Of a stretch of DNA of 64,000 bases, positions 1 to 46,046 are shown one piece after another (position 1 is the first letter of the stretch; every line of letters begins with the position of its first letter). The position numbers and the translations under genes were made by a program. Origin of the DNA: an uncultured Nostoc sp. (GTDB lineage Bacteria > Cyanobacteriota > Cyanobacteriia > Cyanobacteriales > Nostocaceae); the NCBI RefSeq assembly GCF_964245445.1, contig NZ_CAXTNE010000006.1, positions 3,909-67,908 of the forward strand, read 5' to 3'. The notes below the pieces were generated by a model. That model was given only the letters and a program-made list of their open reading frames with translations, was not told where the DNA came from and made no database searches.

Positions 1-268
1 TCTAAAACTTTTGCTGATGTCTTGTCGTGTCATGTCTAGAGGTGTCGGCACAATTATGCTAAATCATATTATGAAATTGGCTAAAAACAATAATGTTCGT
101 TTGCGGGCTGAGTTTATTTCAAATAATCGGAATCGCATGATGTACATATCTTATAAGTTTTCAGGCTTTCAGGAAGTTGATAAAAATGGAGATTTGCTGA
201 TTTTAGAAAATGATCTAAGTCGAATACAGCCTGTCCCTGAGTATGTGAATGTCAAAGTTATAAATTAA
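1..268 (+). CDS. FkbH-like HAD-IIIC glyceryl transferase/phosphatase, C-terminal fragment (5' end outside window)
   Basis: Frame is open from base 2. It contains LMSCRVMSRGVG and NRNRMMY, the FkbH C-terminal signature, and has no fused ACP after it. Confidence 0.85.
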   Translation, partial: LKLLLMSCRVMSRGVGTIMLNHIMKLAKNNNVRLRAEFISNNRNRMMYISYKFSGFQEVDKNGDLLILENDLSRIQPVPEYVNVKVIN

Positions 269-306
269 AAAATATTGCTGGTTTTTGTAGTTTGACAGGG
301 GAGATT

Positions 307-3300
307 ATGGATAAAAGAAAAGATGAAATTTCAAAACGACGGTCAAAGCTTTCACTCGTGCAGCAAGAGTTTCTCAAAAAGCGGTTACAAGGTGAAATTC
401 ACTCTGACTTTCAATTAGAAGTTATTCCAAAACGTTCCCAAATAAATCCGGCTCCCCTGTCCTTTGCTCAACAACGCTTATGGTTTTTGGCCCAGTTAGA
501 GCCAAACAGTCCTTTCTACAACATCCCTGCTGCTGTTCGTTTACAGGGACAATTGAATCTAGGAGCATTGCAACAAAGTTTCAACGAAATTATCAGTCGC
601 CATGAAGCGTTGCGAAGCAATTTCCAAACAATAGAAGGGCAAGCAATATCTGTCATTTCTGAAATGATGCCCTTAATATTACCAATATTTGATATTAGCG
701 AGCTACCTTTAAATCAACAAGAAGCTGAAGTCAGACAACAGGCTTCTCAAGAAGCACAAAAACCTTTTGCTCTCAACAGCGACTTGTTACTGAGAGCAAA
801 GCTGTTGAGACTTAGTAAACAAGAACATATATTATTACTGACAATGCACCACATTGTCTCTGACGGTTGGTCGATAGGTGTTATGGTGCGCGAATTAGCA
901 ACACTTTATCAAGCCTTCTGTAATGGACAACCCTCGCCGTTACCTGCACTACCAATACAGTATGTAGACTTCGCGGTTTGGCAAAGAGAATGGCTGCAAG
1001 GAGAAGTACTCGAAACTCAGATATCTTATTGGCTTAAGCACTTAGAGAACGCACCAAAAGTATTAGAGTTACCTACAGACCACCCAAGACCAGCAATTCA
1101 GACTTTCCGGGGTGCAACCTACTCATTTAAATTATCAAAAGAATTATCCGCATCCCTAAACAAATTAAGTGAGCAACAGGGAAGTACTTTATTTATGACT
1201 CTGTTAGCAGGTTTCCAAACACTGCTATGGCGTTATACGGGTAAGGAAGATATTGTGATCGGTTCAGCAATCGCTAACCGCAACCGAACAGAGATAGAAG
1301 GGTTAATTGGATTTTTTGTCAATACCTTGGTATTGAGAACTAACCTGGCAGGAAATCCCAGCTTTGAAGAACTACTAAAAAGGGTGCGGGAAGTAGCGTT
1401 AGGAGCTTATGCACATCAGGATTTGCCTTTTGAGTTGTTAGTTGAGCAACTGCAACCACAGCGAGACTTAAGCTATACACCATTATTTCAAGTGATGTTT
1501 GTGCTTCAGAATGCACCGATGTCTGCGTTAGAGTTGCCTGGTTTGACTTTAACTCCCTTAGAAAGCAGTAGTGATAGTGCCAAGTTTGATTTAACCTTAC
1601 AAATGACAGAAACAGAGGAGGGACTAGCTGGAAGCTTAGAATACAATACTGATTTATTTCAAGAAAGTACGATACATCGAATGGCGGGTCATTTGCAAAC
1701 GTTGCTTGAAGGAATTGTTGCTAATCCGCAGCAGCGTTTGTCGGAATTACCACTGTTGAGTGAATCTGAACGGCATCAATTGCTAGTGGAGTGGAATGAC
1801 ACTCAGGTTAATTATCCTCAAGATCAATGCATCCATCAGTTATTCGAGGCTCAAGTAGAACGCACACCTGATTCTATAGCAGTGGTGTTTGAAGACCAAC
1901 AGTTGACCTATGGGGAATTAAACACCAAAGCAAATCAACTAGCGCATTATTTGCAAACATTAGGAGTAAAACCAGAAGTATTAGTCGGGATTTGTGTAGA
2001 GCGATCGCTGTTAATGGCGATCGGACTATTAGCCATCCTGAAAGCAGGTGGTGCATATATACCATTAGACCACAGCTATCCTCAAGAACGCATTGCATTT
2101 ATACTAGAAGACACTCAAGCCCCAGTCTTGCTTACTCAAGAGTCGCTTCTTGAGGCGATGCCGCAACACAAAGCTAAAGTGGTTTGTTTAGATACCGATT
2201 GGCAGACAATCGCCCAACAAACCCAGGAAAATTTATTATCTCTTGTCAATAGTCAGAACTTAGCTTATATCATCTATACCTCAGGTTCAACAGGCAGACC
2301 AAAAGGTGTAATGATTCAACACGCAAACACAGTTGCAATGTTGGATTGGGCAAACAAAACCTTTGCGATGGAAGCTATGCAAGGAGTTTTAGCATCAACC
2401 TCAATTTGCTTCGATCTTTCGGTATTCGAGATATTTGTTCCTCTGTGTTGTGGTGGCAAAGTGATTTTAATCGAGAACGCACTCTTGTTACCAACTTCAT
2501 CAGTAGCCTTAGATGTAACCTTAATTAATACTGTCCCAAGTGTAATTTCACAGTTATTAAAAACTGATAGTATTCCAGCTTCAGTGCAGATTGTGAATGT
2601 CGCAGGTGAACCACTTCATAATAAACTTGTACAACAACTTTATCAGCAAGATAATATACAAAAAGTATTTAACCTATATGGACCTTCAGAAGATACAACT
2701 TATTCAACCTTTGCCTGCATACACAAGGATACCAGCAGCACTCCACCTATCGGTCGCCCGATTTACAACACCCAGATTTATTTATTAGATCAAAATTTAC
2801 AACCTGTTCCTGTAGGTGTAGCAGGGATGTTGTATATTGGTGGTGCAGGTTTAGCCCGTGGTTATCTAAACAAAGCGGAACTGACTGCCGAGAAATTTAT
2901 TCCCAATCCTTACGCCAACTTGCCAGGGGAACGGTTATATAAAACTGGAGATCAAGCACGCTATTTGCCTAATGGAGAGATCGAATATATTGGTCGCGTT
3001 GACTATCAAGTAAAAGTGCGTGGTTTTCGTATTGAACTGTTAGAAATTGAAGCAGTTATTATTCAACACCCAACAGTCCAAGAAGCTGTAGTTGTGGTTA
3101 ATTTTTCACAGGCGGATTCTCAACAAATAGTTGCCTATATAGTTCCACAAATAGAGCAAACGCTAACGATTTCTGAACTGCGTGGCTTTTTGGAGTCAAA
3201 GTTGCCAAGCTATATGGTGCCAGCAGCTTTTGTGATATTATCAGCACTACCATTAACACCTAATGGTAAGGTTGACCGTAAGGCACTACCTACACCTGAT

Positions 3301-5016
3301 ACAGCTAGACCTGAAGACAAAGAACTAGTAGCACCTCGTAATTACATAGAAGCCAAACTGACCGAAATTTGGGCAGGAGTGCTTGGTGTGGATAAAGTGG
3401 GTATTTTTGATAACTTTTTTGAGTTAGGTGGGGATTCTATCCTTGGCATTGTAGTTATTACCAGAGCCAACCAGGCTGGCCTAAAACTGGGAGTTAAACA
3501 ATTATTTCAAGCTCAAACAGTTGCTGGCTTGGCAAGTTTGGCAGTTACGAAAAAGGTAAACCAAACTGAACAAGGACTCATCACAGGTTTAGCCTCTCTC
3601 ACACCAATACAATACTGGTTTTTTGAACAGAATCTACTTGAACCTTACCACTGGAACCAAGCAGTTTTACTAGAAGTTAAACAAGTTCTTCATCTAACTA
3701 TATTAGAAAAATCTGTACAGCAACTACTGTTACACCATGATGTTCTTCGCTTACGTTTTGAGCAAACAGAGTCTGGTTGGCAGCAAATTATATCCAGCCC
3801 TGATACAGAATTACCCTTAATAAATTTTGATTTCTCTGCCCTGTCAGCAAGCAAACAAGAACTAGCCATCGAAACAGCTGCTACCAAATTACAAGCCAGT
3901 CTTAATCTCTCAACAGGCCCATTGATGCGAGTTGCTCTGTTCGACTTAGGGCATCGACCAAGCCGTTTGCTGATACTCATCCACCATTTAGCCGTAGATG
4001 GCGTTTCTTGGCGGATTTTACTGGAGGACTTGGAGACAGTATACCAACAGTTAAATCAAGGCAAGAAAGCGCAATTGCCAACAAAGACAACTTCGTTTAA
4101 ATATTGGTCGCAATGCTTACAGGAATATGCACAATCAGCTACCCTCCAGCAAGAATGGGACTATTGGCTGAGTCCGTCTTGGCAGCAGATTGCTCCTTTA
4201 CCAGTCGATTTTTCTAACGGCGACAATACTGTGGCGGAAGTTCGGAACATCTCAATTTTTCTGACTGTAGAACAGACTCAAGCCTTGCTAAAAGAAGTAC
4301 CAAAAGCTTATAATACACAAATTAATGATGTCTTGTTAACGGCATTAGTACAAGCTTTTTCTCAATGGACTAGCAACAGTTCTTTGTTGTTGGCTCTCGA
4401 AGGTCATGGGCGGGAAGAAATTTTCGATGATGTCGATTTGTCGCGCACAGTAGGTTGGTTTACCTCTGTTTTCCCTGTACTGTTAAATTTAGGAAAAACG
4501 TCTCATCCCGTAGAAGCGTTGAAAGTAGTAAAAGAGCAGCTGCGGGGCATTCCAAATAAGGGAATGGGCTATGGTGTACTACGTTACCTGAGTCAGGATA
4601 CTATGAGAGTAGAGTCACTGCGATCGCTTCCCCAAGCTGAGGTGATCTTCAATTACTTAGGTCAGTTCGATCAAACATTTTCGGACTCGTCAATATTTAA
4701 AATCTCTCATAAATCCCAAGGACAAACGCGCAGTTCGCAAAACTGCGAGACATATATGCTAAATATCGATGCTTTAGTAATTGATAACCAGTTAAGAGTG
4801 AATTGGGCGTACAGTGAAAAAATATATCGACGAAGTACTATTGAACGATTAGCGCAAGAGTTTTTGGAAGCATTGCAAGTACTCGTGACTCATTGTCAAT
4901 ACCCTGAAGACAGAGGATATACACCTTCTGATTTTCCAGAAGCAGACTTAATTCAACAAGACCTTGATCGGTTTTTAGAGAAAATCAACCGAGGGAGTAA
5001 AAATAAAACAACATGA
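307..5016 (+). CDS. NRPS module C-A(Ala)-T-E (D-Ala)
   Basis: C motif MHHIVSDGWS; A cores YTSGSTGRPKG and YKTGD; specificity code read by eye DLFNNALTYK (Ala-type); T motif GGDS; E motif HHLAVDGVSW; C-terminal COM TPSDFPEA. ATG at 307 follows GGGGAG, so it is preferred over TTG at 292. Confidence 0.95.
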   Translation: MDKRKDEISKRRSKLSLVQQEFLKKRLQGEIHSDFQLEVIPKRSQINPAPLSFAQQRLWFLAQLEPNSPFYNIPAAVRLQGQLNLGALQQSFNEIISRHEALRSNFQTIEGQAISVISEMMPLILPIFDISELPLNQQEAEVRQQASQEAQKPFALNSDLLLRAKLLRLSKQEHILLLTMHHIVSDGWSIGVMVRELATLYQAFCNGQPSPLPALPIQYVDFAVWQREWLQGEVLETQISYWLKHLENAPKVLELPTDHPRPAIQTFRGATYSFKLSKELSASLNKLSEQQGSTLFMTLLAGFQTLLWRYTGKEDIVIGSAIANRNRTEIEGLIGFFVNTLVLRTNLAGNPSFEELLKRVREVALGAYAHQDLPFELLVEQLQPQRDLSYTPLFQVMFVLQNAPMSALELPGLTLTPLESSSDSAKFDLTLQMTETEEGLAGSLEYNTDLFQESTIHRMAGHLQTLLEGIVANPQQRLSELPLLSESERHQLLVEWNDTQVNYPQDQCIHQLFEAQVERTPDSIAVVFEDQQLTYGELNTKANQLAHYLQTLGVKPEVLVGICVERSLLMAIGLLAILKAGGAYIPLDHSYPQERIAFILEDTQAPVLLTQESLLEAMPQHKAKVVCLDTDWQTIAQQTQENLLSLVNSQNLAYIIYTSGSTGRPKGVMIQHANTVAMLDWANKTFAMEAMQGVLASTSICFDLSVFEIFVPLCCGGKVILIENALLLPTSSVALDVTLINTVPSVISQLLKTDSIPASVQIVNVAGEPLHNKLVQQLYQQDNIQKVFNLYGPSEDTTYSTFACIHKDTSSTPPIGRPIYNTQIYLLDQNLQPVPVGVAGMLYIGGAGLARGYLNKAELTAEKFIPNPYANLPGERLYKTGDQARYLPNGEIEYIGRVDYQVKVRGFRIELLEIEAVIIQHPTVQEAVVVVNFSQADSQQIVAYIVPQIEQTLTISELRGFLESKLPSYMVPAAFVILSALPLTPNGKVDRKALPTPDTARPEDKELVAPRNYIEAKLTEIWAGVLGVDKVGIFDNFFELGGDSILGIVVITRANQAGLKLGVKQLFQAQTVAGLASLAVTKKVNQTEQGLITGLASLTPIQYWFFEQNLLEPYHWNQAVLLEVKQVLHLTILEKSVQQLLLHHDVLRLRFEQTESGWQQIISSPDTELPLINFDFSALSASKQELAIETAATKLQASLNLSTGPLMRVALFDLGHRPSRLLILIHHLAVDGVSWRILLEDLETVYQQLNQGKKAQLPTKTTSFKYWSQCLQEYAQSATLQQEWDYWLSPSWQQIAPLPVDFSNGDNTVAEVRNISIFLTVEQTQALLKEVPKAYNTQINDVLLTALVQAFSQWTSNSSLLLALEGHGREEIFDDVDLSRTVGWFTSVFPVLLNLGKTSHPVEALKVVKEQLRGIPNKGMGYGVLRYLSQDTMRVESLRSLPQAEVIFNYLGQFDQTFSDSSIFKISHKSQGQTRSSQNCETYMLNIDALVIDNQLRVNWAYSEKIYRRSTIERLAQEFLEALQVLVTHCQYPEDRGYTPSDFPEADLIQQDLDRFLEKINRGSKNKTT
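1783..3335 (+). repeat. 1553-bp direct repeat, copy 1 (entire Ala A domain); copy 2 at 16911-18463
   Basis: Identity starts at CTAGTGGAGTGGAATGAC and ends at GTAGCACC, offset 15128. Off-frame ORFs in the track are duplicated exactly (1874/17002, 2346/17474, 2597/17725). Confidence 0.95.
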
Positions 5017-6413
5017 AAGAAAATATCCAAGATATATATCCATTATCTCCGATACAGCATGGTATGCTTTTTCACAGTTTGCACGCTCCTGAAATGGAAC
5101 TATACCATGCACAAACCGTCTACACTTTCAGTGGCAATCTGAATCTTGCGGCTTTTAAATACGCTTGGCAGCAAGTAGCAACCCGACACACAATGTTGCG
5201 TACTAGCTTCTATTGGGAAGAATTGGATAAACCACTACAAGTTGTGCATCGGCAAGTAGAAGTACCTGTAGAATATCAAGACTGGCAGGAAATCAATCCA
5301 TTAGAACAGCAAGAGCGTTTACAGTCTTTTCTCAACAGCGATCGCCAGCGACGTTTTGATTTTTCCCAAGCACCTCTAATGCGTGTGGCTATCATCCAGA
5401 TTCAAGAACACGCTTACTACCTTGTTTGGAGTAGCAACCTGATCGTTCTAGATGGTTGGTCATATCCATTGGTATTAAATGATGTGATTGAAATTTATGA
5501 AGCTTATTGTCAGGGTGAGGATGCATCCTTAGCAGATGGCAGTTGCTTTAAAGATTATATCAAATGGCTCAAACAGCAGGATTCATCAAAAGCAGAGGAT
5601 TTCTGGCGACAGCATCTTAATGGAGTTAAAGAGGCTACTCCTTTAAGGAATTTAGAGTCAAACAATTTGTCCAACTTAGAACAACGATACGAGGATATAA
5701 AAATCAGTCTATCGGAAGCAACGACAAAGAATCTATATTTATTAGCAAGACAGCATCACCTCACCATGAGTACCCTAGTTCAGGGAGCTTGGGCTATACT
5801 TCTGTATCACTACAGTGGCAAAAATGATGTAGTCTATGGTTGTACTACTTCTGGTCGTCCAGTAGATTTACAAGGTTCAGAGTCAATGGTAGGGGAAATG
5901 GTTAATACCTTACCAGTAAATATCAAGGTAGATATGAATGAGTATTTATTACCTTGGCTTCAACAATTGCAAAATCAGTTAATAGATATTCGTGAATATG
6001 AATATTATCCATTGGTAGATATTCAAAAGTGCAGCGAAGTTCGGGGTAATGTAACCTTGTTTGAGAGCATAGTGGTGTTCGAGAACCAAAAAACAGGTAA
6101 ATTTCTGGAAGAATGGGGGAGTCTAAACATCTCTGAGAAAACTGAATATTACAAAACTAACTATCCTCTAACGATAGTTGGGTATCCTGGTTCAGAACTG
6201 ACAATTGGGATTAATTATGATTTTCGCCGCTTTGATGCTGCAACAATCATTAATATATTGGAGCATTTAAAAATATTGCTCGAAGGCATAGTGACGAATC
6301 CTAAAGTACGTCTTCAGGAGTTATTATTGCTTATAGAGCAAAAACTCCATATTAAATTATCAATGTTAGAAATAGAAATGTCATTGGATTTTGATTTTGT
6401 TTCCACAAATTAA
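5013..6413 (+). CDS. Stand-alone condensation domain (DCL-like) with degenerate active site
   Basis: Starts with acceptor-type IYPLSPIQHGMLFH. The active-site region reads WSSNLIVLDGWS instead of WSHHHxxxDGWS (codons 5427-5459). There is no A or T domain. Confidence 0.9.
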   Translation: MKENIQDIYPLSPIQHGMLFHSLHAPEMELYHAQTVYTFSGNLNLAAFKYAWQQVATRHTMLRTSFYWEELDKPLQVVHRQVEVPVEYQDWQEINPLEQQERLQSFLNSDRQRRFDFSQAPLMRVAIIQIQEHAYYLVWSSNLIVLDGWSYPLVLNDVIEIYEAYCQGEDASLADGSCFKDYIKWLKQQDSSKAEDFWRQHLNGVKEATPLRNLESNNLSNLEQRYEDIKISLSEATTKNLYLLARQHHLTMSTLVQGAWAILLYHYSGKNDVVYGCTTSGRPVDLQGSESMVGEMVNTLPVNIKVDMNEYLLPWLQQLQNQLIDIREYEYYPLVDIQKCSEVRGNVTLFESIVVFENQKTGKFLEEWGSLNISEKTEYYKTNYPLTIVGYPGSELTIGINYDFRRFDAATIINILEHLKILLEGIVTNPKVRLQELLLLIEQKLHIKLSMLEIEMSLDFDFVSTN

Positions 6414-6614
6414 ATAGCTAGATAAAGCTTAAAAAATAAAAGTTAGCAAAAAAAATATTTCCAATATTTTAATATTGATTTATTTATAATTAGAGAAAAA
6501 GAAGGGGTTTTTGGCTTTTAGCGATCGCTTGTTTGACCCGAAGATTTTTTTGAAGGAAAACCCCAGATTCAGCAATACCAGATTAATGTATTTTGTAATT
6601 TAAATAGAAAACTC

Positions 6615-7871
6615 ATGAATATATTTGAAAAGCGTGAATCAAATGTCAGAAGCTATTGCCGCAATTTTACCGCAATCTTTCATAGAGCTAAAGGTTCTAT
6701 AATTTATTCTGAATCAGGTAAAGAATATATTGATTTTTTAGCAGGAGCAGGTGCTTTAAATTATGGACATAATCACGACTATATCAAAGAAAAGGTGATC
6801 TCATACTTAGATGCCGATGGAATAACACATGGTTTGGATATGTATACTTCGGCTAAGGAGAAATTTTTAGCCAAGTTTGATGAGGTAATACTAAGTTCAA
6901 CAAAACTAGATTATCGCATTCAGTTTTGTGGACCAACAGGAACAAATGCAGTTGAAGCTGCTTTAAAACTAGCGAGAAAAATCAAACGAAGAACAGGCAT
7001 ATTTTCCTTCATGGGAGCATATCACGGAATGACTTTAGGGAGCCTATCGATTAGTGGCAACATCGAAATTAGAGCAGGCACAATTGGTACATCAAGTAAT
7101 GTAAATTTTATGCCTTATCCCTATGGATTCATGGAGAGTTTTGACACAATAGAATATATAAATTCTGTTTTAAATGATGTCAAGTCCGGAATTGAAAAAC
7201 CAGCAGCAATAATCTTTGAAACAGTGCAGGCTGAAGGTGGAGTTGTTGTAGCTCCCATTGAGTGGATGCAAAGACTAAGAAGGTTATGTGACGAGAATGA
7301 TATTTTATTAATCTGCGATGATATTCAGGTTGGCTGTGGTCGAACAGGCTCTTTCTTTTCCTTTGAAAGAGCAGATATTGTTCCCGATATGGTAGTACTT
7401 TCTAAATCTATTAGCGGGTACGGGTTTCCAATGTCACTATTATTGATTAAACCAGAATTGGATATATGGGAACCAGGTGAGCATAATGGTACTTTTCGGG
7501 GTAATCAATTGGCATTTATAGGAGCAACAGCGGCTCTAGAGTATAGAGAAAGTAGCAATCTCGAACAAGATGTCAAAGCCAAAGAACTTTTTTTGAAAAA
7601 TTTTCTCACTCAGCAAATAGCACCAATTAGTGAAAAGATAGCAATACGTGGAATTGGTATGATTTGGGGTATTGATTTAAAAAGTTTTGGCGGCAATAGT
7701 TTTGCTAAAAGTATAACATCACGTTGTTTTGAGCTAGGATTAATAGTTGAACGCGCAGGTAGAAATGATACTGTAATTAAAATTTTGCCCCCTTTGGTAA
7801 TTGATATGTCTACCTTAGAAAAAGGTTGTTCAATTATCAAAGAAGCTTTTAATGACTGCATGTCAAATTAA
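6615..7871 (+). CDS. Diaminobutyrate--2-oxoglutarate transaminase (EctB/Dat-like class III aminotransferase)
   Basis: ESNVRSYCRNF N-terminus, GPTGTNAVEAALKLARK, ETVQAEGG, DDIQVGCGRTG, PLP lysine in LSKSISG. Confidence 0.92.
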   Translation: MNIFEKRESNVRSYCRNFTAIFHRAKGSIIYSESGKEYIDFLAGAGALNYGHNHDYIKEKVISYLDADGITHGLDMYTSAKEKFLAKFDEVILSSTKLDYRIQFCGPTGTNAVEAALKLARKIKRRTGIFSFMGAYHGMTLGSLSISGNIEIRAGTIGTSSNVNFMPYPYGFMESFDTIEYINSVLNDVKSGIEKPAAIIFETVQAEGGVVVAPIEWMQRLRRLCDENDILLICDDIQVGCGRTGSFFSFERADIVPDMVVLSKSISGYGFPMSLLLIKPELDIWEPGEHNGTFRGNQLAFIGATAALEYRESSNLEQDVKAKELFLKNFLTQQIAPISEKIAIRGIGMIWGIDLKSFGGNSFAKSITSRCFELGLIVERAGRNDTVIKILPPLVIDMSTLEKGCSIIKEAFNDCMSN

Positions 7872-7924
7872 ATTGGCATACTAATATTTATAACTCAGCA
7901 AGTAATTTATTATCACGAAACAAT

Positions 7925-10696: not shown

Positions 10697-10731
10697 AAAC
10701 GAATAGAATATTAATTAAAAGGATAAAAATA

Positions 10732-20135: not shown

Positions 20136-20136
20136 C

Positions 20137-23469: not shown

Positions 23470-23626
23470 TCTCAACAAGGTATTGAAGAAATAAGAGCGA
23501 TCGCTAGAAGATGGATACCCTATAAAATCAAACATTTTAGAAAGTGTTCATAACACTTAAAAAAAAGAAGGCAAAACCTTCTTATTTCAAAAATGAAGTA
23601 TAAAAATTTATTGCAACAAACACAAT

Positions 23627-25273: not shown

Positions 25274-25319
25274 ACAACTTGCTATTAGACAAAAAATATT
25301 TATTATAATATTTTGACTT

Positions 25320-30002: not shown

Positions 30003-30042
30003 AATATGTTAGCTTCAGTTAATTTATCTAGATCGGGAAATT

Positions 30043-34674: not shown

Positions 34675-34714
34675 TTTTAAATCTTATCTATAAATAGGAA
34701 AGGAAAAATAGTTT

Positions 34715-35476: not shown

Positions 35477-35663
35477 TATAATTGCAGAGATTAGTGGCTA
35501 AGTCAAAATTAATTTTTTTGATGATAGGACTTGTCACTTAATAAGCTTTTGATAACAGTATAGTTATCTGAATCAAGAGTTTGGGAATGAGAATTTTTAT
35601 TAAGCGGCAAGTCAAAATTTAGCTAAAAAACTAAAAATAATAAATATTAATAATTTCTTGGCA

Positions 35664-38600: not shown

Positions 38601-39770
38601 CTCCCACTTACACCTAATGGCAAAGTAGATAAGCGTTCTCTGCCAATTGATGAAGTTATCCGATCAACTACTATCCAATCATTTGTTGCTCCTCGGAATT
38701 TTACAGAATTATCATTAGTAAAACTTTGGGAAAATCTCCTAAATACTAACCCTATTGGGGTAACAGATAACTTCTTCGACTTGGGTGGTCACTCGTTTTT
38801 AGCTGTACGCTTAATGGCTCAAATTCATGACAGATTCGAGCATAATCTTCCCTTGTCTACTCTTTTTGAAAACCCGACAATTGAAAAACTAGCAAGCATT
38901 GTCAGTCAGCCAGCCCGTCAGAGTTCTAATTCTCCTCTAGTAGCAATTAATTCTTCTGGTTCTAAGATACCTTTTTTCTGTATGCATGGTGCTGGTGGAG
39001 GTATTAGTCACTATTTTAATTTATCCCGAAGACTTGGTGAAGATTATCAATTTTACGCTTTGGAAGATACCTTAGAACAAGACAAACCAGAAATTATTTC
39101 AGTAGAAGAGACAGCAACTCGCTACCTCCAAGAAATTCGTAAAATACAACCAAATGGCCCTTATCTTTTAGGTGGTCATTGTTATGGCGGTGTACTTGCT
39201 TTTGAAATAGCGCAACAATTACAAAATAAGGGTCAAACAGTAAGTTTATTAGTTGTCATCGATGCCATACTATCAGAAACACCCATTGAATCTACAGACG
39301 ATGACGATGCAAAATTTTTACTCCGCATCGCTGAATCAATAAAAACCGATAATAATATAGACTTTGTAGTACCTTTTGAAGAACTTCGAGATTTGCCATT
39401 AAATCAGCAACTTCATTTTATTAATCAAAAAGCAAAGTTCATCTTTAGCGATACAGAAATTAACGATTTTCTTCACCATTACAATCTGTTTAAAGCTCAT
39501 GTCCAAGCTATGCGAGGTTATATTCCGCAGATTTATCCAAAAAAAATGACTTTATTCCGAGCAAAGGAGGAAATAATCCATGATTTTGAAAGCCCTGAAT
39601 GGAATACCGACGATCCATTTCTAGGTTGGGAGAAATTTTCAAATCAACCTATACAAATAATTGAAATTCCAGGCGACCATTTTTCAATTTTCGTAGAACC
39701 TTATATTGAAGAATTAGCTAAACGTTTGAAAATTTGTATCGATCATGCTGTGTGCGATCTAAATAATTAA
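35664..39770 (+). CDS. Terminal NRPS C-A(beta-Ala)-T-TE
   Basis: C MHHIITDGWS. A domain SFVDSVWE has Val at the usual Asp235 position; code by eye VDWIISFANK is close to the beta-Ala code VDWVISLADK. T GGHS; TE GGHCYGG and GDHFS. Confidence 0.93.
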   Translation: MDKQDFNLSPAKKALLEKWKRGNIQADIIPKRQVFKNIPLSFSQQRLWFIDQLYHGSSFYNIPIAFHIKGQLNIKVLQQSLNEILKRHEVWRTTFSVVNGEPVQEIAPQLTWDLPIINLEHLSGKDWESEVKQLVAESAKKPFNLAKGLLVRATLLRLSEEEHILLVTMHHIITDGWSCSVFLRELSMLYAAFLTNQPSPLPELPIQYADFAIWQRDRIQGEFLATQLNYWKQQLKAELPVLQLPTYRPRPKVTTFSGAKQYFTFSKALTDVLRQLSQREDATLFMSLLAAFNILLYCYTDQEDILIGSPIANRNRAELEGMLGLFVNTLVLRNNLSGNPSFREFLHRVREVTLDAYAHQDLPFEMLVEKLQPERHLSRNPLYEIMFVLQNTPTSVQEVSGLTLRTLEFDSGTAQLDIFLSISESQEGLTGSLEYNTDIFDSTMITQFINNFQTLLGNIVDNPEQRISELSLLTASEQEQLLFKFNQTSADYPQDTSLHQLFEQQVELTPDSLALISQSEKLTYRQLNHKVNQLAHYLQKQGVTKETLVALCVERSIEIVTGILAILKAGGAYIPLDPSYPVERLNFMLSDSQASLLITKQEILEKLSLSSAKTVCLDIQKDEIAQESSENPINIYLFDNLDNLAYIIYTSGSTGTPKGVLGTHRGTVNGLHWLWKTYPFTQGEVCCQKTATSFVDSVWEIFAPLLQGIPTVIISNATILDPQLFIEALAHHKVSRIILVPSLLGLLVDNYSHLTKKLSQLKLWITSGETLSINLAKTFRELMPFVKLINFYGSSEVSANATYYDTSLLQEQASSVPIGSAIDNTQIYVLNRDLKLTPIGVIAELYIGGDGLAKGYLHRPELTQEKFIDNPFVPGTKLYKTGDFVRHLNDGSLEYLGRQDEQVKIRGFRVELDEITAAIAQHPDVQESVVIASNDAQENQRLIAYVVTNKQDLTTQLLSYLQHQLPNYMLPSAFVVLDKLPLTPNGKVDKRSLPIDEVIRSTTIQSFVAPRNFTELSLVKLWENLLNTNPIGVTDNFFDLGGHSFLAVRLMAQIHDRFEHNLPLSTLFENPTIEKLASIVSQPARQSSNSPLVAINSSGSKIPFFCMHGAGGGISHYFNLSRRLGEDYQFYALEDTLEQDKPEIISVEETATRYLQEIRKIQPNGPYLLGGHCYGGVLAFEIAQQLQNKGQTVSLLVVIDAILSETPIESTDDDDAKFLLRIAESIKTDNNIDFVVPFEELRDLPLNQQLHFINQKAKFIFSDTEINDFLHHYNLFKAHVQAMRGYIPQIYPKKMTLFRAKEEIIHDFESPEWNTDDPFLGWEKFSNQPIQIIEIPGDHFSIFVEPYIEELAKRLKICIDHAVCDLNN

Positions 39771-39788
39771 TGGGAGTGAAAAAAGCTG

Positions 39789-41129
39789 ATGAAACTACCT
39801 CCAGGACCGAAAACTCCTTCTTGGTTGATAGCTCTACAATTTAAGGCTGATCCCTTTGGCTATATGGATACTATTTCCAAACGTTATGGTGATATTGTCA
39901 CTTTAATGTTTGGCTTTACACCAAGAATTTATATCAGTAATCCTTCAGCAATAAAGGAGATTTTTACAAATACCAAGGAAATTGTAGCTGGGGGTGAGTT
40001 GAACCCGGAGTTCGTCTTGATGACAGGAAATCAAGGAGTTCTCCAACTTGATGGTTTAATTCACAAAAATCGACGCAAACTGTTAATGCAGAGTTTTCAT
40101 GGAGCGCGGATGCAAGCCTGTGGGCAACGTATATGCGAACTTACAGAAAAAATTATCAGTCAACAGGCAGTCGCAAAGCATTTTGTTGCATACCCAATAA
40201 TTGAAGATATTACCTTGCGAGTGGGTATAGAAGTTGTAATGGGTTTATATAGAGGAGAGCGCTATGACAAAATTAAGCATTTATTTGTGTCTGCACTTAG
40301 ACATGGAGAATCTCCAGTAAATAAGATTCTTAGCAATATTTTTGGAGAAAGAGATTTAGGTCGATGGAGTCCATATGGTTCTCTCCTTCACCTTCGACAA
40401 CAACTTTTTCAATTGCTATTGAGTGAGGTGGAAGAACGTCGCAAGCAAGCAGATTTTTCACGCGTTGATATGATTAGCGATCTGATATTTGCTAAAGATG
40501 AAACAGGTCAACCACTAAGTAATGAAGAAGTACGCGACCTCTTATTATCGCCTATATTTGCAGCTGGTGATGCTTCCGGAACTGCGATCGCTTGGTCTTT
40601 GTACTGGATTCACCGTTTACCTTATATTCATCATCGCCTGCTATCAGAACTAGACAGCCTTGGTGAAAACCCAGATCCCATGAGCATTGTTGCACTACCC
40701 TACCTCAGCGCAGTTTGTAATGAAGCCTTACGAATTTACCCAACTCAGTTGTTTACATTTCCCAGGCTGGTAGAGTCTCCAGTCGAGGTGATGGGTTACA
40801 AGTTGAATCCTGGTACAATAGTTATTGGTAATATTTATTCCACTCATCAACGCGAAGATTTATACCTTAATCCAAAAGAATTTCAGCCAGAGCGCTTTTT
40901 AGAAAAACAATTTTCTCCCTACGAATTTTTCCCATTTGGTGGCGGCTCTCGGGTTTGTATTGGCGGGACTTTTGCTCTATTTGAAATGAAACTTATATTA
41001 GCAACTATTCTTTCCCGTTATGAATTAGAGCTAGTTAGTCAGCGCCCAGAACGTCCCAAATTTGGAGGTCTAATTTGTTACCCAGCTAGCGGCGTCAAGA
41101 TGGCCGTGCGTGGTCTGCGTCAACATTAA
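39789..41129 (+). CDS. Cytochrome P450 (CYP110-like)
   Basis: KLPPGP N-terminus, EALR (ExxR), PERF, heme motif FGGGSRVCIG. Confidence 0.95.
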   Translation: MKLPPGPKTPSWLIALQFKADPFGYMDTISKRYGDIVTLMFGFTPRIYISNPSAIKEIFTNTKEIVAGGELNPEFVLMTGNQGVLQLDGLIHKNRRKLLMQSFHGARMQACGQRICELTEKIISQQAVAKHFVAYPIIEDITLRVGIEVVMGLYRGERYDKIKHLFVSALRHGESPVNKILSNIFGERDLGRWSPYGSLLHLRQQLFQLLLSEVEERRKQADFSRVDMISDLIFAKDETGQPLSNEEVRDLLLSPIFAAGDASGTAIAWSLYWIHRLPYIHHRLLSELDSLGENPDPMSIVALPYLSAVCNEALRIYPTQLFTFPRLVESPVEVMGYKLNPGTIVIGNIYSTHQREDLYLNPKEFQPERFLEKQFSPYEFFPFGGGSRVCIGGTFALFEMKLILATILSRYELELVSQRPERPKFGGLICYPASGVKMAVRGLRQH

Positions 41130-41215
41130 CGACAGTCATAGCCATCGATTGCTGACTTAGTTTAAAACCTATCTTAAAACCTATCAATTATTTAACATTT
41201 CTCAGAAAAATACCA

Positions 41216-42550
41216 ATGAAACTACCTGATGGCCCAAAAACTTCTCGCCGATTACTCAGTCAATTTGAGACTGATCCCCTTACCTTCATGGATACTATGG
41301 GCGATCGCTATGGCGACATTTTCACTATTATGGCTGATTCAATACCTCTAGTAATAATCAGCAACCCAGAAGGGATGAAGCAGATTTTTACTAATGCAAA
41401 AGAGATTACAGCTTCTGGTAAGTTGAATCAAGGTGGAGAATCAATTGTCGGCAAGAATGGGTTGCTTGCACTAGATGGGTTGCGTCACAGAAATCGCCGT
41501 AAGTTGTTGATGTCACCGATGCGCGAAACTCAGACACAAGAATATGGACAGCATATTTGTAGAGTCACAGAAAAAGTTATGAATCAACTGACTTTAGGTA
41601 AATCTTTTCTTGCTTATCCCACTATGCAAAAGATTACCCTAGAAGTAGTTTTGCCATCATTATTTGGGTTACATCAAGGAGAGCGTTACGAACAATTTCG
41701 ACAACTGTTTTCTAATCTAATAAGTTACGCTCGGTCTCGCTGGCTGGACATCTCTCTGTCCTATCCTTTTCTAAAGAGGGATTTGGGTCCCTGGAGTCCT
41801 TGGGGATACTGGCTTCACTTACAACGACAATTTGACAAACTGCTCCACATCGAAATTGAAGAGCGTCACCAACAAGTAAATGCTTTGCGTACCGATGTAT
41901 TATCAGAACTGGTATTTGCTTACGATGAAACTGGTCAAGCAATGACCTATGAATATATACGAGATTTGTTTCCATCATTGCTATTTGGTGGTCAAGATGC
42001 GTCAGCCACTGCTATAAGTTGGTCTTTGTACTGGATTCATAGTACACCTGGTGTTCGCGATCGCTTATTAGAAGAACTTGACAGTCTTGGTGAATCCCTA
42101 GAACCTGGGAAGATTATTGCATTACCTTACTTAAATGCTGTTTGTAATGAATCCCTACGAATTTATCCAACTCAGGTTGTGACATTTCCACGACTTGTAG
42201 AATTACCAATTGAAGTCATGGACTACAAATTAGACCCAGGTACCGTAGTAAGAGGATGTATATACTTAACTCATCAACGAGAGGATTTATATCCACAACC
42301 AAAGCAATTCAGACCAGAGCGCTTTCTAGAAAAAGAATATTCTCCCTATGAGTTTCTACCATTTGGTGGTGGCGCTCGTCGCTGTCCAGGTGAGTTATTA
42401 GCACTTTTTGAAATGAAACTGGTATTAGCAACAATTCTCTCACGCTATCAATTAGCGTTAGCAGATAAAAGAGTAGAGAAACCTAAGGCTAGGGGCGTTA
42501 ACTATCCTCCTGCTAGTGGCTTGAAGATGGTAATGCTTGGGTCACGGTAA
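41216..42550 (+). CDS. Cytochrome P450 (CYP110-like), tandem paralogue
   Basis: KLPDGP, ESLR, PERF, heme motif FGGGARRCPG. Confidence 0.95.
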   Translation: MKLPDGPKTSRRLLSQFETDPLTFMDTMGDRYGDIFTIMADSIPLVIISNPEGMKQIFTNAKEITASGKLNQGGESIVGKNGLLALDGLRHRNRRKLLMSPMRETQTQEYGQHICRVTEKVMNQLTLGKSFLAYPTMQKITLEVVLPSLFGLHQGERYEQFRQLFSNLISYARSRWLDISLSYPFLKRDLGPWSPWGYWLHLQRQFDKLLHIEIEERHQQVNALRTDVLSELVFAYDETGQAMTYEYIRDLFPSLLFGGQDASATAISWSLYWIHSTPGVRDRLLEELDSLGESLEPGKIIALPYLNAVCNESLRIYPTQVVTFPRLVELPIEVMDYKLDPGTVVRGCIYLTHQREDLYPQPKQFRPERFLEKEYSPYEFLPFGGGARRCPGELLALFEMKLVLATILSRYQLALADKRVEKPKARGVNYPPASGLKMVMLGSR

Positions 42551-42568
42551 TAAGTAAATAAATTAAAA

Positions 42569-43945
42569 ATGACTTCACAAAACCAATCTAAAATAAAAAA
42601 GGAGATCCTTCAAGGTAACATCTTAAAACTGATGTTCAAGTTATCAGCCCCTGGCATTCTAGTAATGCTGCTGATTAATATGAATGCTTTTATTGATGCT
42701 CTATTTGCTGGGCAGTTTATAGGAGAAACAGCAATTGCTGGCATATCTTTATCTCTACCACTTACTGCTATCATCGATGGTTTTGCTTACTTAGTTGGAA
42801 CAGGTTCAGCTTCTGTCCTGAGCCAAGCTATTGGTGCTGGAGATATAAAAACTCAGTCCAAAATATTTGGCAATTTAATTATAATGGGTATTTTTATATC
42901 CTTTTTTATTACTATAATTGGCTACAGTTTTAGTGAAGAATTAATTAAATTAATGGGAGGAAGTGGTCAAGTAGCTTTTGTCGGTTCTGAATACTTTAAA
43001 ACTTATATGCTAGGCGCAGTATTTTATATTTTAGCAGTAGCTTCCAACCAACTTATTAAGTCAGAAGGTAAAGTTAGATTAGCTATGACTTTTGCAGGTA
43101 TTTATGTCATTATTAATATAATTTTAAATCCTATATTTGTTGTAGTTTTTCATTGGGGTATCCGGGGAATTGCTCTTGCTACTGTTATTGCTATGATAGT
43201 ATTTTGTATAATAAACTTTATATACTTCTTATCTGGTAAAAGTTCTATTCCAGTGAATCCTAGAAAGCTGGCTCTAGCAATAAATTTACTTCCGAGAATT
43301 TTATCAGTGGGAATGTCAGCATTACTCGCTAATGTTATGGAATTAGTTCAAAATTTTGTTGTTTTTAAATCTATCTCCTATTACGGAACAAATAGTGATA
43401 TTGCTTTCTACGGAGCAACTATAAGATTGACTTTATTAGCATTCATTCCTTTAAATGGATTTGTGCAAGCATTACAACCAGTGATTGGCATAAATTATGG
43501 AGCCAAAAATTATGATAGACTGAAAAAAGCTTATTTTACTTTTATTATTTCTGTGACTGCTTTAGCTGTGTTATTTTGGTTGCCAATGCAATTATCACCA
43601 GAAATATTTTTAAGTTGGCTATTGCCAAATTCGACTTTCACAAACAATGATTTACTCAATTTTCGCGTTTTGAGTTTATTAATACCAACAATAGCTTTTG
43701 TTCCCTTTGGTTCAGTTTTATTTCAGTCTATAGGAAAGGGTAAAACTGTTTCTATAATAATTATTTTAAATAATCTAGTTTTATTTATTCCATTAGTGGT
43801 TATTTTATCAAATTTACTAGGTGTTAGTGGTGTATATTATGGAATAGCTATAACAGACTTTTTACTGATGATTATTGCACTTCTGTTAACATTTATTGAA
43901 TTCAAAAAAATGAATATAAATCATCTCAAAGATAATCATTATTAA
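42569..43945 (+). CDS. MATE family efflux transporter
   Basis: About 12 hydrophobic segments; IDALFAGQFIG, SQAIGAGD, NIILNPIF, GIRGIALAT, QPVIGINYGAKNYDR. Confidence 0.9.
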   Translation: MTSQNQSKIKKEILQGNILKLMFKLSAPGILVMLLINMNAFIDALFAGQFIGETAIAGISLSLPLTAIIDGFAYLVGTGSASVLSQAIGAGDIKTQSKIFGNLIIMGIFISFFITIIGYSFSEELIKLMGGSGQVAFVGSEYFKTYMLGAVFYILAVASNQLIKSEGKVRLAMTFAGIYVIINIILNPIFVVVFHWGIRGIALATVIAMIVFCIINFIYFLSGKSSIPVNPRKLALAINLLPRILSVGMSALLANVMELVQNFVVFKSISYYGTNSDIAFYGATIRLTLLAFIPLNGFVQALQPVIGINYGAKNYDRLKKAYFTFIISVTALAVLFWLPMQLSPEIFLSWLLPNSTFTNNDLLNFRVLSLLIPTIAFVPFGSVLFQSIGKGKTVSIIIILNNLVLFIPLVVILSNLLGVSGVYYGIAITDFLLMIIALLLTFIEFKKMNINHLKDNHY

Positions 43946-44027
43946 ACTATCAATATAATTCCAATTGTATTCATTTTAAATTGTAGTTCTCACACATGCA
44001 TATTTATTCACTATAAAGGTCACAAAA

Positions 44028-44906
44028 ATGCCTCTAAAACATAAAGGTGCTATCGTAATTACAGGAGCATCAACAGGTGTAGGCAGAGCAGCAGCTCTTA
44101 TGCTTGACAAAAAAGGATATCGAGTGTTTGCATCAGTCCGTAAAGAAAAAGATGCTGAATCTCTCAAGAGTGATTCCTCCGAGAATTTGACACCGATTTT
44201 CATGGATATTACAAAAGCAGAAGAAATCAAATCTGCCGCAGATATTGTTTCAAAATCTATTCCTGATGAAGGATTAGTAGGATTAGTAAATAATGCTGGT
44301 CTGTTAGTTGATGGGCCACTGGAGTTTATTTCGCTTGATGATCTGAGATGGCAATTTGAAGTCAATGTTTTTGGGCAAATAGCAGTGACGCAGGAATTTT
44401 TACCGTTAATCCGAAAAGTTAAAGGTCGGATTATTAATATTGGCTCTATCGGAGGAGTAATTTCTGGACCATATATCTCTGCTTTGTGTGCTTCCAAGTT
44501 TGCGTTAGAGGCATTTACCGATGCTCTGAGAATAGAATTACATCCTTGGGGAATCGAAGTTATCTTAATTGAACCAGGCTCAATTGCATCTGCGGCTCCG
44601 GATAAAGTAGAAGAAAGCTTTAGAAAAAATTTTGCCAATATGTCACCTGATGCTAAAGCAATGTATGGAGATACATATAAACTTTTTGTAGAAGATTTAA
44701 TTCAATCAAATCGTGAAGGGATGCCGCCGGAACAAGTTGCAGATGCAATTATAAAGGCTTTAGAAGTCAGGAAGCCTAAAACACGTTATTTCTTATCTAA
44801 GGGGCAGCTAGGTTTAATGCTTGAACTAGTGCTGAAAAAATTTACACCAGACCGTAGTTATGATGCAATGATTATAAAAAGTTTGAATTTAAAACATCAG
44901 ATTTGA
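44028..44906 (+). CDS. Short-chain dehydrogenase/reductase with atypical catalytic motif
   Basis: TGASTGVG, LVNNAG, EVNVFG, IEPGSI; the YxxxK position reads LCASK. Confidence 0.9.
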   Translation: MPLKHKGAIVITGASTGVGRAAALMLDKKGYRVFASVRKEKDAESLKSDSSENLTPIFMDITKAEEIKSAADIVSKSIPDEGLVGLVNNAGLLVDGPLEFISLDDLRWQFEVNVFGQIAVTQEFLPLIRKVKGRIINIGSIGGVISGPYISALCASKFALEAFTDALRIELHPWGIEVILIEPGSIASAAPDKVEESFRKNFANMSPDAKAMYGDTYKLFVEDLIQSNREGMPPEQVADAIIKALEVRKPKTRYFLSKGQLGLMLELVLKKFTPDRSYDAMIIKSLNLKHQI

Positions 44907-45005
44907 ATTCATTATTGTGCATTTTATCCGGTTGAATACTCAAATCATAAGTATATCACTGGAATATTACAGACAATCAACACTTAGTTAATTCACTTCA
45001 AAATC

Positions 45006-46046
45006 ATGATTTCATCTGATTCAAAACCTAATAATACAGACTTTCAAATCAGTCCGATAGAATGGGTACATGCTTACTGGGTTTCACGGTGTATCTATGT
45101 CGTCGCTAAACTTGGTATTGCTGATTTGCTAAAGGATGGTTCTCAACATTGCGATATTTTAGCTGCTGCAACAAATACGCATAGTGATTCTCTATATCGA
45201 GTTTTGCGGGCGATCGCCAGTATCGGAATTTTTGCGGAGACACAAACTCGATGCTTTGAGCTAACACCATTGGCAGATTGTTTACAAAGCAACGTTCCTG
45301 ACTCAATTCGTGCTATGGCTATTTTCCGAGGTGAAGAGCATTACTATAAATCCTGGGGAAATTTAATGTATTGCTTACAAACTGGTAAAAGTGCCTTTGA
45401 AGATTTGTATGGTATGGATTTGTTTGAATACAATGAACAGAATTCCAGCCGAGGAGAAATCTTCGACCAGGCTATGACTTCATCAAAAGATTCTTATACC
45501 GAACACCTGGAAGCTTATGATTTTTCGTCAATTAATAAGCTAATAGACGTTGGTGGTGGTAAAGGGAGCTTTTTAGCTGCTGTACTCGAAGCTAATCCTA
45601 CTATGATAGGAGTATTGTTCGATCAGGCAGAAGTGATTAATAGAGCCAAGGATTCACAAGAAATAGCATCCGTTATTAGTCGTTGTCAGCTTGTAGGAGG
45701 TAGCTTTTTTGAAGCTCTGCCACAAGGAGGAGATGCTTATGTTCTTAAACATATTATTCAGGACTGGGATGACGAGCGATCGCTTGCTATTCTTCAACGT
45801 TGTCATCAAGCCATGATAGAGCAAGGACGGGTTTTAGTGATAGACTACGTACTTCCTCCTGCTAACGAGTTTTCAGGAAGCAAGTTTATAGATGTCAACA
45901 TGTTAGTAATGTGTCCAGGTGGACGTATTCGTACTGAAGCTGAGTTTGAAGATTTATTTAAATCAGCAGGTTTCAAACTTACTAAAATTTATCCAACACA
46001 ATCGGATGTTAGTATTATTGAAGGAGTTAAAATAGATATCAATTAA
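45006..46046 (+). CDS. Family-2 O-methyltransferase-fold SAM methyltransferase with dimerisation domain
   Basis: AKLGIADLL dimerisation region, LIDVGGGKG, GSFFEALP, KHIIQDW, GGRIRTEAEF. Confidence 0.9.
   Translation: MISSDSKPNNTDFQISPIEWVHAYWVSRCIYVVAKLGIADLLKDGSQHCDILAAATNTHSDSLYRVLRAIASIGIFAETQTRCFELTPLADCLQSNVPDSIRAMAIFRGEEHYYKSWGNLMYCLQTGKSAFEDLYGMDLFEYNEQNSSRGEIFDQAMTSSKDSYTEHLEAYDFSSINKLIDVGGGKGSFLAAVLEANPTMIGVLFDQAEVINRAKDSQEIASVISRCQLVGGSFFEALPQGGDAYVLKHIIQDWDDERSLAILQRCHQAMIEQGRVLVIDYVLPPANEFSGSKFIDVNMLVMCPGGRIRTEAEFEDLFKSAGFKLTKIYPTQSDVSIIEGVKIDIN

Follow-up and report, generated by a model that had tools for sequence, protein, structure and literature searches.

A FAAL-primed hybrid PKS/NRPS cluster of a lichen-type Nostoc with a likely role in siderophore or metallophore biosynthesis

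Few families of siderophores or metallophores are on record for cyanobacteria, namely schizokinen/synechobactin, anachelin, the cyanochelins, the leptochelins, fatuamide and the lusichelins. Cyanochelins A-C are lipopeptide siderophores with β-hydroxyaspartate (β-OH-Asp), and their assembly is primed by a fatty acyl-AMP ligase (FAAL). According to the cyanochelin C preprint, all cyanochelins bear an N-terminal heterocycle and β-OH-Asp; cyanochelin-like clusters are recognised in the literature by TauD beside Asp modules, and import of cyanochelin B has been shown for the class of TonB-dependent receptors that carry an AMIN domain. We analysed a stretch of 64,000 nucleotides from an uncultured Nostoc sp. 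(assembly GCF_964245445.1, contig NZ_CAXTNE010000006.1, positions 3,909 to 67,908 of the forward strand; hereafter the window), in which positions 1-46046 are occupied by modules of nonribosomal peptide synthetases (NRPS) and polyketide synthases (PKS). An earlier note on this DNA had read them as an orphan assembly line for a cationic peptide-polyketide. Our best explanation, with a probability of roughly 0.6, is that 1-46046 is the 3′ part, about 60%, of a ~77-kb FAAL-primed hybrid PKS/NRPS cluster of a lichen-type Nostoc, and that the most likely role of its product is that of an amphiphilic siderophore or metallophore.

The line is a single-strand one: all long open reading frames (ORFs) of 1-46046 lie on the forward strand, and all 17 complete genes, lettered A to Q, are open across 46 kb. 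Every domain claimed before was confirmed in place and on this strand by Pfam (E-values 1e-12 to 1e-215). The colinear modules, of the types C-A-T (condensation, adenylation, thiolation) and KS-AT-(KR)-ACP (ketosynthase, acyltransferase, optional ketoreductase, acyl carrier protein), together with a terminal thioesterase (TE), are those of a cis-AT type I assembly line. The carrier Ser, the KS Cys/His/His residues and the His motifs of the condensation and epimerisation domains were present, barring exceptions in genes B, D, E and J. When the five adenylation domains were aligned to GrsA-PheA, ten residues each, the Stachelhaus codes DLFNNALTYK (A and F), DIWEISADDK (D), DVEDIGAVSK (G) and VDWIISFANK (L) were obtained, so that module order and residue codes agreed with those of the earlier note. 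Domains, motifs, codes, precursor enzymes and conservation were read directly from the sequence.

The right boundary at 46046 held, the genes beyond it being unrelated and of housekeeping type (a spore-photoproduct-lyase family gene, an M50 peptidase, a glycosyl-hydrolase-like gene and others). The left boundary is set by the window edge only, and in relatives the cluster runs on upstream. The window DNA is 93-96% identical to Nostoc sp. DSM 114159 (locus L001), Nostoc punctiforme NIES-2108 and several Nostoc genomes from Peltigera lichens; in Nostoc sp. P3034 (L095), ~31 kb separate the FAAL start from the end of the FkbH gene, which together with the window gives ~77 kb for the whole cluster.

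The head of the cluster was read in the relatives. Five genes stand there directly 5′ of FkbH, encoding a JmjC/cupin-8 protein, an acyl-CoA dehydrogenase, an 82-aa ACP, a 3-hydroxyacyl-CoA dehydrogenase and a free-standing AT. Farther upstream (L085 and L095, with L006 for the first module) are KS-AT-cMT-KR-ACP (cMT, C-methyltransferase), KS-AT-KR-DH-ER-ACP (DH, dehydratase; ER, enoylreductase), KS-AT-KR-ACP and a FAAL-ACP-C-A-T protein. The last has 2176 aa, the code DVWHISLIDK, an inserted FkbM-type methyltransferase and an ordinary condensation domain (HHIIADG). The earlier note had put an acyl unit ahead of the first amino acid; an acyl start does appear to lie upstream, and to judge from relatives at 95% DNA identity it would consist of a fatty acid joined to a Ser-type residue, with three ketide units after it. 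Beside the FAAL gene of relatives, a TonB-dependent receptor gene with an AMIN domain is divergently transcribed; this pairing, which lies outside the window, was met in Nostoc P3034 and in Nostoc UHCC 0926 (L084). Two further observations concern the head. The second upstream PKS of L095 (14712-21422) has KR ahead of DH and ER by Pfam coordinates and the AT motif GESIGEY, and Nostoc sp. DSM 114159 has a 101-aa ORF (L001 816-1121) where NIES-2108 has the 320-aa JmjC gene.

The cluster resembles those of the cyanochelins in its FAAL start, its PKS/NRPS operon running in one direction and its divergent AMIN-domain TonB-dependent receptor. Split NRPS modules are likewise common to both, cyanochelin C also has a β-alanine (β-Ala) module with its own supply enzyme, and the sibling cluster of UHCC 0926 joins this head and the cassettes described below with two TauD/Asp modules. 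Unlike the cyanochelin clusters, the present one lacks TauD, Asp codes and a heterocyclisation (Cy) domain, and it adds the FkbH set, a cassette for 2,4-diaminobutyrate (Dab) with the transaminase EctB, and a tail made up of the aspartate decarboxylase PanP, a PKS with a dead KR and a module with a Cys-type TE. The window gave no TauD match and no Asp code, the head of the relatives holds the JmjC/cupin-8 gene, and the first NRPS condensation domain of L095 (HHIIADG) shows no DxxxxD motif. Membership among the cyanochelins was rejected for the lack of TauD and of a Cy domain; fatuamide and lusichelin were ruled out as relatives, with no marker genes in common. It is accordingly very improbable that the cluster makes an already described cyanobacterial compound such as a cyanochelin variant, even though the FAAL start, the AMIN-TonB receptor and the β-Ala module with a dedicated supply enzyme are found in cyanochelin clusters too: besides the missing TauD, Asp module and Cy domain, a full-text literature search combining the cluster features gave no description of the cluster or of a compound with such a backbone, the founding cyanochelin paper being outside the reach of that search. 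Exact-protein look-ups of genes B and C gave no record, and a metagenome scan with the upstream PKS as query returned distant relatives only. In a HMMER search of representative genomes with the C-terminal 670 residues of gene L, giant multi-module NRPSs ranked first through their summed scores and no orthologues could be distinguished. The cluster is thus probably an uncharacterised orphan among the cyanobacterial FAAL-primed PKS/NRPS clusters, of siderophore type.

The link to iron uptake came from sibling clusters. A cassette out of genes H to P, with PanP, dead-KR PKS, β-Ala/Cys-TE module and P450, recurs at 48-83% protein identity on plasmids of Gloeocapsopsis dulcis AAB1 and Nostoc UHCC 0926. 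In G. dulcis the order is PanP (76%), I-like PKS (70%), J-like PKS (70%, KR motif lost), K-like methyltransferase (48%), L orthologue (80%) and P450 (83%), then an Asp/Asn hydroxylase, a short-chain dehydrogenase/reductase (SDR, 52%), a ferredoxin-like gene and a MATE transporter (59%). Its head is alike (FAAL-NRPS, PKS, cMT-PKS, 3-hydroxyacyl-CoA dehydrogenase, ACP, acyl-CoA dehydrogenase, FkbH), and a TonB-dependent siderophore receptor and an iron-siderophore binding protein are encoded in mid-cluster. Plasmid pn1 of UHCC 0926 carries the head, two TauD domains with Asp codes, a Thr module, the B/EctB/D cassette, Ala and Gly modules and then the tail of PanP, dead-KR PKS, β-Ala/Cys-TE module and P450, with the AMIN-TonB receptor divergent from the FAAL gene. 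Plasmid pB of Chroococcidiopsis sp. CCNUC1 (L098 5407-24020) holds an AT, an ACP and a phosphopantetheinyl transferase, then a single C-A(β-Ala)-T-TE(Cys) module followed by an AMIN protein, a TonB receptor, two ABC transporters, two P450s (54-57% identical to M and N) and an MFS gene; this minimal cluster may make the tail moiety alone. The three receptors compared were 46-52% identical to one another, and each of the four other clusters examined (P3034, UHCC 0926, G. dulcis and Chroococcidiopsis) had TonB-dependent receptor or siderophore-binding genes within or next to it. Across 59 loci, the module that comes first after FkbH varied widely, with codes for Thr, Ser, Gly, Asp-like, Dab, Ala, β-Ala and Gln, and the family thus shows a conserved head, a variable middle and a conserved tail. 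The 508 stretches with FkbH relatives found in GTDB species genomes came from Nostocales and also from Aliterella and Symploca.

These findings bear directly on the reading that starts from the earlier note, namely an antibiotic of the paenilamicin/galantin/zwittermicin type, polar and cationic, that is exported by the MATE pump for antagonism rather than metal uptake. Dab and a basic residue are indeed predicted, a MATE exporter lies in the cluster, and the hydroxymalonyl-ACP logic is common to zwittermicin; a fatty-acyl head with Dab is reminiscent of polymyxin-like lipopeptides; and the window line encodes no classical iron ligand by Pfam (TauD/β-OH-Asp, N-hydroxylase, catechol or Cy domain). 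Against this stand the iron-uptake genes in or beside four of four other clusters and the β-OH-Asp siderophore signature in a sibling. Moreover, a FAAL start with three PKS modules would give one lipophilic end rather than a small polar peptide, and a self-resistance gene is not evident. Products of the paenilamicin/galantin type bear a polyamine terminus, units of galantinic-acid type and a prodrug activation motif; the present line closes with a β-Ala module and TE, and a fatty acid is predicted at its head. The analogy with these antibiotics hence found no genomic support, and we consider an antibiotic role possible but rather unlikely. Because of the receptor linkage of the sibling clusters and the AMIN-TonB and TauD precedents, a siderophore or metallophore role was judged the more likely one.

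The set of genes around FkbH was compared with that for zwittermicin A. FkbH, an ACP and two dehydrogenases form the established route to hydroxymalonyl-ACP, known from work on zwittermicin and FK520. The window opens within the gene of an FkbH-like (HAD-IIIC) glyceryl-ACP loading enzyme, which crosses the left edge and of which the 88 C-terminal residues are present (2-268, forward strand). Positions 1-2063 are 93-96% identical to L001 and L003-L006, which hold the full 356-aa gene; this gene is 94-96% identical to the window part, and its L006 orthologue matched TIGR01686 with 275.7 bits (cut-off 146.65), in line with the FkbH gene and the zwittermicin-like extender logic noted before. The ACP, the 3-hydroxyacyl-CoA dehydrogenase and the acyl-CoA dehydrogenase lie beside FkbH in L006, L085, L029, L010, L042, L056, L083 and L097, and from relatives at 95% identity the same hydroxymalonyl-ACP set is predicted for the window strain, outside the window. 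As in zwittermicin biosynthesis (ZmaN as FkbH, ZmaD as ACP, ZmaG and ZmaE, with the ATs ZmaF and ZmaA-AT), FkbH, a free ACP and both dehydrogenases are adjacent, a separate AT occurs along with a PKS module that probably cannot load itself, and amino acids would be extended by PKS into hydroxylated amino-acid units. The differences are that the gene set here is upstream of the window and was seen in relatives only, that an aminomalonyl branch was not found, and that the line is far larger, starts from a FAAL-activated fatty acid and belongs to a cyanobacterium, not to Bacillus.

The module probably unable to load itself is gene E (10732-15483, +), a KS-AT-KR-ACP protein with an intact KR. Its AT reads GHGVGEY where GHSxGE is expected, so the nucleophile Ser is replaced by Gly, and the GHG was found again in L001 and L002, two independent assemblies of relatives. 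We surveyed 80 FkbH loci for cis ATs up to 10 kb downstream of FkbH. A free AT of GYS type was present in 16 of the 80, and 11 of these 16 had a dead cis AT (GQG or GHG) within that distance (12 when L020 is counted, its GQG coming from a separate reading); the remaining four are of the same lineage as the window, and their module E falls outside the stretch examined. Where a free AT was absent, no dead AT was found either, three short contigs truncated on the upstream side excepted. Given GHG in the AT of E and a free AT next to the FkbH set in relatives, the unit after Dab is probably derived from hydroxymalonate loaded in trans by the free AT, rather than from malonate. The earlier note had given a C2 unit with a β-hydroxyl at this position; the reduction stands with the intact KR, and the unit would likely be a 2,3-dihydroxy rather than a 3-hydroxy one. 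The best match of the free AT in the Protein Data Bank is ZmaA-AT. The AT of E and that of the cMT module have this same best match, so ordinary-looking ATs match ZmaA equally well and the structure match was rejected as proof of hydroxymalonyl specificity. As a separate observation, the free AT (5032-6438) and the cMT-module AT (450-1700) of L006 form a distinct subtype with GYSIGEY instead of GHSxGE, GLGTHY in place of GQGxQY and an insertion of ~30 residues, and most of the 80 loci have an AT of the GYSIGEY subtype no more than 10 kb upstream of FkbH.

Dab incorporation is spread over three genes. Gene C (6615-7871, +), a class III aminotransferase, matched the EctB equivalog TIGR02407 (L-2,4-diaminobutyrate:2-oxoglutarate transaminase) with 575.6 bits against a cut-off of 552.2, and its plasmid homologues are annotated ectB. 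Gene D (7925-10696, +) carries the Dab-type code DIWEISADDK, for which the sibling clusters have DIWEMTADDK or DIWELTADDK, so the Dab assignment gained an in-cluster supply enzyme. The earlier note did not mention that this step is served by a condensation domain without its catalytic His and by half of another. Gene B (5013-6413, +) is a free-standing, full-length condensation domain of DCL type (the type that accepts a D-residue upstream; Pfam positions 2-449 of 456) with SSNLIVLDG for HHxxxDG, the second, catalytic His being replaced by Leu. Gene D begins with the C-terminal lobe of a condensation domain only (Pfam positions 186-456), followed by adenylation and thiolation domains.

Such features could mean that the line has been broken by decay and that its full-length product is not made, as could the GHG of the AT of E, the KR of gene J without its NADPH motif, the LSKG loop of D in place of xPKG, and the short or divided ORFs of DSM 114159 (gene A as two ORFs; 101 aa against 320 aa for JmjC). 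However, Leu occupied the catalytic-His position of B in all 12 orthologous loci (71-96% protein identity), with dN/dS values of 0.12-0.20 against the window orthologue. Homologues of D were ~900-1450 aa long among the 120 listed of 1189 passing E≤1e-50, and each one inspected starts with the half domain, including those of ~1400 aa that bear an extra condensation domain downstream. The half domain of D gave dN/dS of 0.23-0.50 against 0.13-0.29 for the adenylation core, that is, it is under weaker but real constraint. Since Leu and the half domain recur in orthologues at low dN/dS, the split of B and D is read as a conserved architecture across Nostocales rather than decay, and pseudogenisation of the two genes was rejected. 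With all 17 complete genes open, a dead KR kept in the clusters of UHCC 0926 and G. dulcis and the dead AT co-occurring with a free AT, we give very little credence to a broken line. The half domain of D perhaps docks to B. The A3 core motif of D (~9170-9200) reads TSGSTGLSKG, and its Pro-to-Ser change was found only in the closest relatives (P0001-P0007) and not in distant homologues. The EctB/D segment behaves as a movable cassette, as its G+C content drops to 0.32-0.34 across the genes for EctB and D (6000-10000) against ~0.40 in the neighbouring genes and EctB is missing between B and D in L042 and L056.

Both Ala modules, gene A (307-5016, +; motifs HHIVSDG and HHLAVDG) and gene F (15480-20135, +), are of the type C-A-T-epimerisation and share the code DLFNNALTYK. 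Each ends in an epimerisation domain (HHLAVDG) and is followed by a DCL-type condensation domain, and for these reasons D-Ala at both positions, as proposed before, is a sound prediction. The origin of the first one could be traced further. Positions 1783-3335 of gene A (+) are identical base for base to 16911-18463 of gene F over 1553 nt, a tract comprising the C-A linker, Acore and Asub (aa 498-1015) with sharp, mismatch-rich edges at the end of the condensation domain (aa 498) and just ahead of the thiolation domain (aa 1015). On either side of the tract, the identity of gene A to its orthologues is mostly 87-99% and that to gene F only ~55-75%. In the four closest relatives the module of gene A has the code DLKNFGTICK, so that among the sequences compared the converted tract is found in the window alone. 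From the identity of the A and F tracts and the different code of the relatives, the first D-Ala is attributed to a very recent conversion within the cluster, with F as donor and A as recipient. Natural exchanges usually spare the C-A linker and the Asub part (PMC8097286), unlike the swap found here, which takes in both. Over 1082 nt, the AT regions of I and J (26937-28018 versus 31633-32714) agree at 99.8% identity while the rest of both genes has diverged, which looks like a second recent gene conversion. In DSM 114159, gene A (L001 2324-7074) was called as two overlapping ORFs of 575 and 1013 aa.

Gene G (20137-23469, +; start set at the first Met past the stop codon of F) is a C-A-T module with a DCL-type condensation domain. 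Glu and Asp at positions 3 and 4 of its code DVEDIGAVSK give an acidic pocket, which suggests a basic side chain and is compatible with Arg, Lys or Orn alike, as the earlier note had it. The module G of DSM 114159 (1520 aa) has an extra methyltransferase domain (L001 22213-22772) that the window G does not have.

The tail recalls another known chemistry. In kirromycin-type pyridones, a β-ketoacyl chain is joined to β-Ala supplied by an aspartate decarboxylase, closed by a Dieckmann reaction and later oxidised. Here, gene H (23627-25273, +) encodes a pyridoxal phosphate (PLP)-dependent aspartate 1-decarboxylase that matched the PanP equivalog TIGR03799 with 614.7 bits (cut-off 606.1) and is 82% identical to the UHCC 0926 gene. 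It is followed by the PKS genes I (25320-30002, +) and J (30043-34674, +), both KS-AT(HAFH)-KR-ACP. The KR of I is intact, and that of J reads GGLESIEVV where GGLGGIG is expected and is likewise degenerate in the orthologues of UHCC 0926 and G. dulcis, which bears out the C2 unit with β-hydroxyl from I and that with β-keto group from J expected before. After gene K (34715-35476, +), a class I S-adenosylmethionine-dependent methyltransferase, comes the terminal C-A-T-TE module L (35664-39770, +). Its code VDWIISFANK is of β-Ala type (VDWVISLADK, VDWVISLANK or VDWIISLANK in siblings), and with PanP in the cluster the β-Ala assignment was upheld. As EctB and PanP both pass their cut-offs, in accordance with the codes of D and L, the cluster has genes to supply its own L-2,4-diaminobutyrate and β-alanine.

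Release by a Cys-type thioesterase had not been considered in the earlier reading. The nucleophile of the L thioesterase is Cys (GHCYG), and a β-Ala-type code goes together with GxCxG in four of four L-like terminal modules (window, Nostoc UHCC 0926, G. dulcis and Chroococcidiopsis CCNUC1); GWSxG is the motif in three less closely related NRPS thioesterases of cyanobacteria (35-40% identity). Among solved structures, the nearest is the termination module AB3403 of Acinetobacter baumannii (4zxh/4zxi; E 1.9e-30 to 4zxh), which has the Cys motif GWCFG. This likeness is limited to the TE (L residues ~1103-1350), and the adenylation specificity and pathway context of AB3403 differ. Like the kirromycin-type systems, the cluster has a β-keto-retaining PKS module (J) directly before the β-Ala module (L), an in-cluster aspartate 1-decarboxylase and P450s after them. 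Unlike them, it uses the PLP-dependent PanP and not the pyruvoyl enzyme PanD, and a separate cyclase is not among the 17 window genes, so that the Cys-TE would have to cyclise; no stand-alone Dieckmann cyclase of the KirHI/TrdC family was found, all genes of 1-46046 carrying other Pfam assignments, although the family's own model was not searched. We tentatively suggest, as a rather doubtful possibility, that Dieckmann closure by the TE and P450 oxidation form a β-Ala-derived 3-acyl-piperidine-2,4-dione or hydroxypyridone, the iron-binding unit of a new siderophore class with AMIN-domain TonB receptors for its uptake. The genes would be equally compatible with macrocyclisation or with simple hydrolysis to a C-terminal β-Ala acid.

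The remaining cluster genes are predicted to serve tailoring and export. The P450 gene M (39789-41129, +) is 83% identical to a G. dulcis and 71% to a UHCC 0926 P450, each immediately past the L orthologue; its best solved-structure match, CYP120A1, gave no functional lead. A second P450, gene N (41216-42550, +), is 55.5% identical to M. The MATE transporter O (42569-43945, +) and the SDR oxidoreductase P (44028-44906, +) are 59% and 52.5% identical to genes of the G. dulcis cluster, where the K orthologue also holds the matching position; for K itself no specific family match was obtained, the structure matches being generic methyltransferases only. Gene Q (45006-46046, +), a Methyltransf_2-type O-methyltransferase with a dimerisation domain, is the last cluster gene and had no orthologue in the G. 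dulcis or UHCC 0926 stretches examined.

Some features stand apart from the assembly line. A 220-aa ORF (43976-44638, -) overlapping the start of the SDR gene is probably spurious. Just 3′ of the cluster, a 118-aa ORF (46922-47278) has a RemA-like N-terminus below threshold (17.8 bits, cut-off 26). Two ORFs, 52564-53523 (-, 319 aa) and 54191-54694 (-, 167 aa), had no Pfam match at E≤0.01. A convergent pair of DUF6174 genes (59609-60103, +; 60547-61053, -), outside the cluster, adjoins an SLOG cluster4 (LDcluster4) gene (61570-62058) and an amine-oxidase-family gene (62295-63068). Rfam and tRNA scans of the window gave no match.

Several points weigh against our reading of the cluster, its siderophore or metallophore role included. 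The head is placed outside the window, by way of relatives at 95% DNA identity, and the product as a whole is predicted from genes. We take DLFNNALTYK to be an Ala code, and the reference codes for Dab, β-Ala and basic residues are likewise presumed. Condensation by B, with Leu for the catalytic His, is presumed as well, and the ZmaA best match, not being specific to the free AT, is no proof of a hydroxymalonyl preference. No Fur-box-like site rose above shuffled controls when four receptor/synthetase intergenic regions of relatives were scanned with the E. coli consensus, and the missing classical ligands mentioned above count here too. A membrane-active antibiotic would also be consistent with the MATE pump, the lipid tail and the two cationic residues.

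Taken in order, the following assembly is proposed, in which the extender at E, the condensation by B, the release chemistry and the function are predictions for this cluster. The FAAL would activate a fatty acid, which would be joined to a Ser-type residue and extended by three PKS modules, and the set of FkbH, ACP, 3-hydroxyacyl-CoA dehydrogenase and acyl-CoA dehydrogenase would supply hydroxymalonyl-ACP. Gene A would incorporate D-Ala, and the split module, made of the lone condensation domain of B and the half-C-A-T of D, would incorporate Dab provided by the EctB encoded between them. PKS E would be loaded in trans by the free AT, most likely with hydroxymalonyl, and reduction by its KR would yield a 2,3-dihydroxy unit. 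D-Ala from gene F and the basic residue from gene G would follow, then a β-hydroxy C2 unit from PKS I and a C2 unit from PKS J with its β-keto group kept. Gene L would add the β-Ala made by PanP, and its Cys-nucleophile thioesterase would free the chain, with tailoring by the methyltransferases, the two P450s and the SDR and export by the MATE pump.

Orphan clusters are common in Nostoc, and several of the oddities found here are individually precedented. The cluster nevertheless belongs to a widespread head/middle/tail family tied to iron-uptake genes, for which a described product was not found, and it raises questions of enzymology, namely condensation without a catalytic His, an AT-dead module served by a free AT adjacent to FkbH and the role of a Cys thioesterase paired with β-Ala. 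The adenylation-domain swap would alter one residue of the product between strains that are otherwise ~95% identical, which offers a ready comparison for metabolomics. If the tail does form a piperidinedione or pyridone ring, this ring would bind metals and account for the receptor linkage, and the new siderophore class would range from the minimal Chroococcidiopsis cluster to the ~77-kb clusters of Nostoc.

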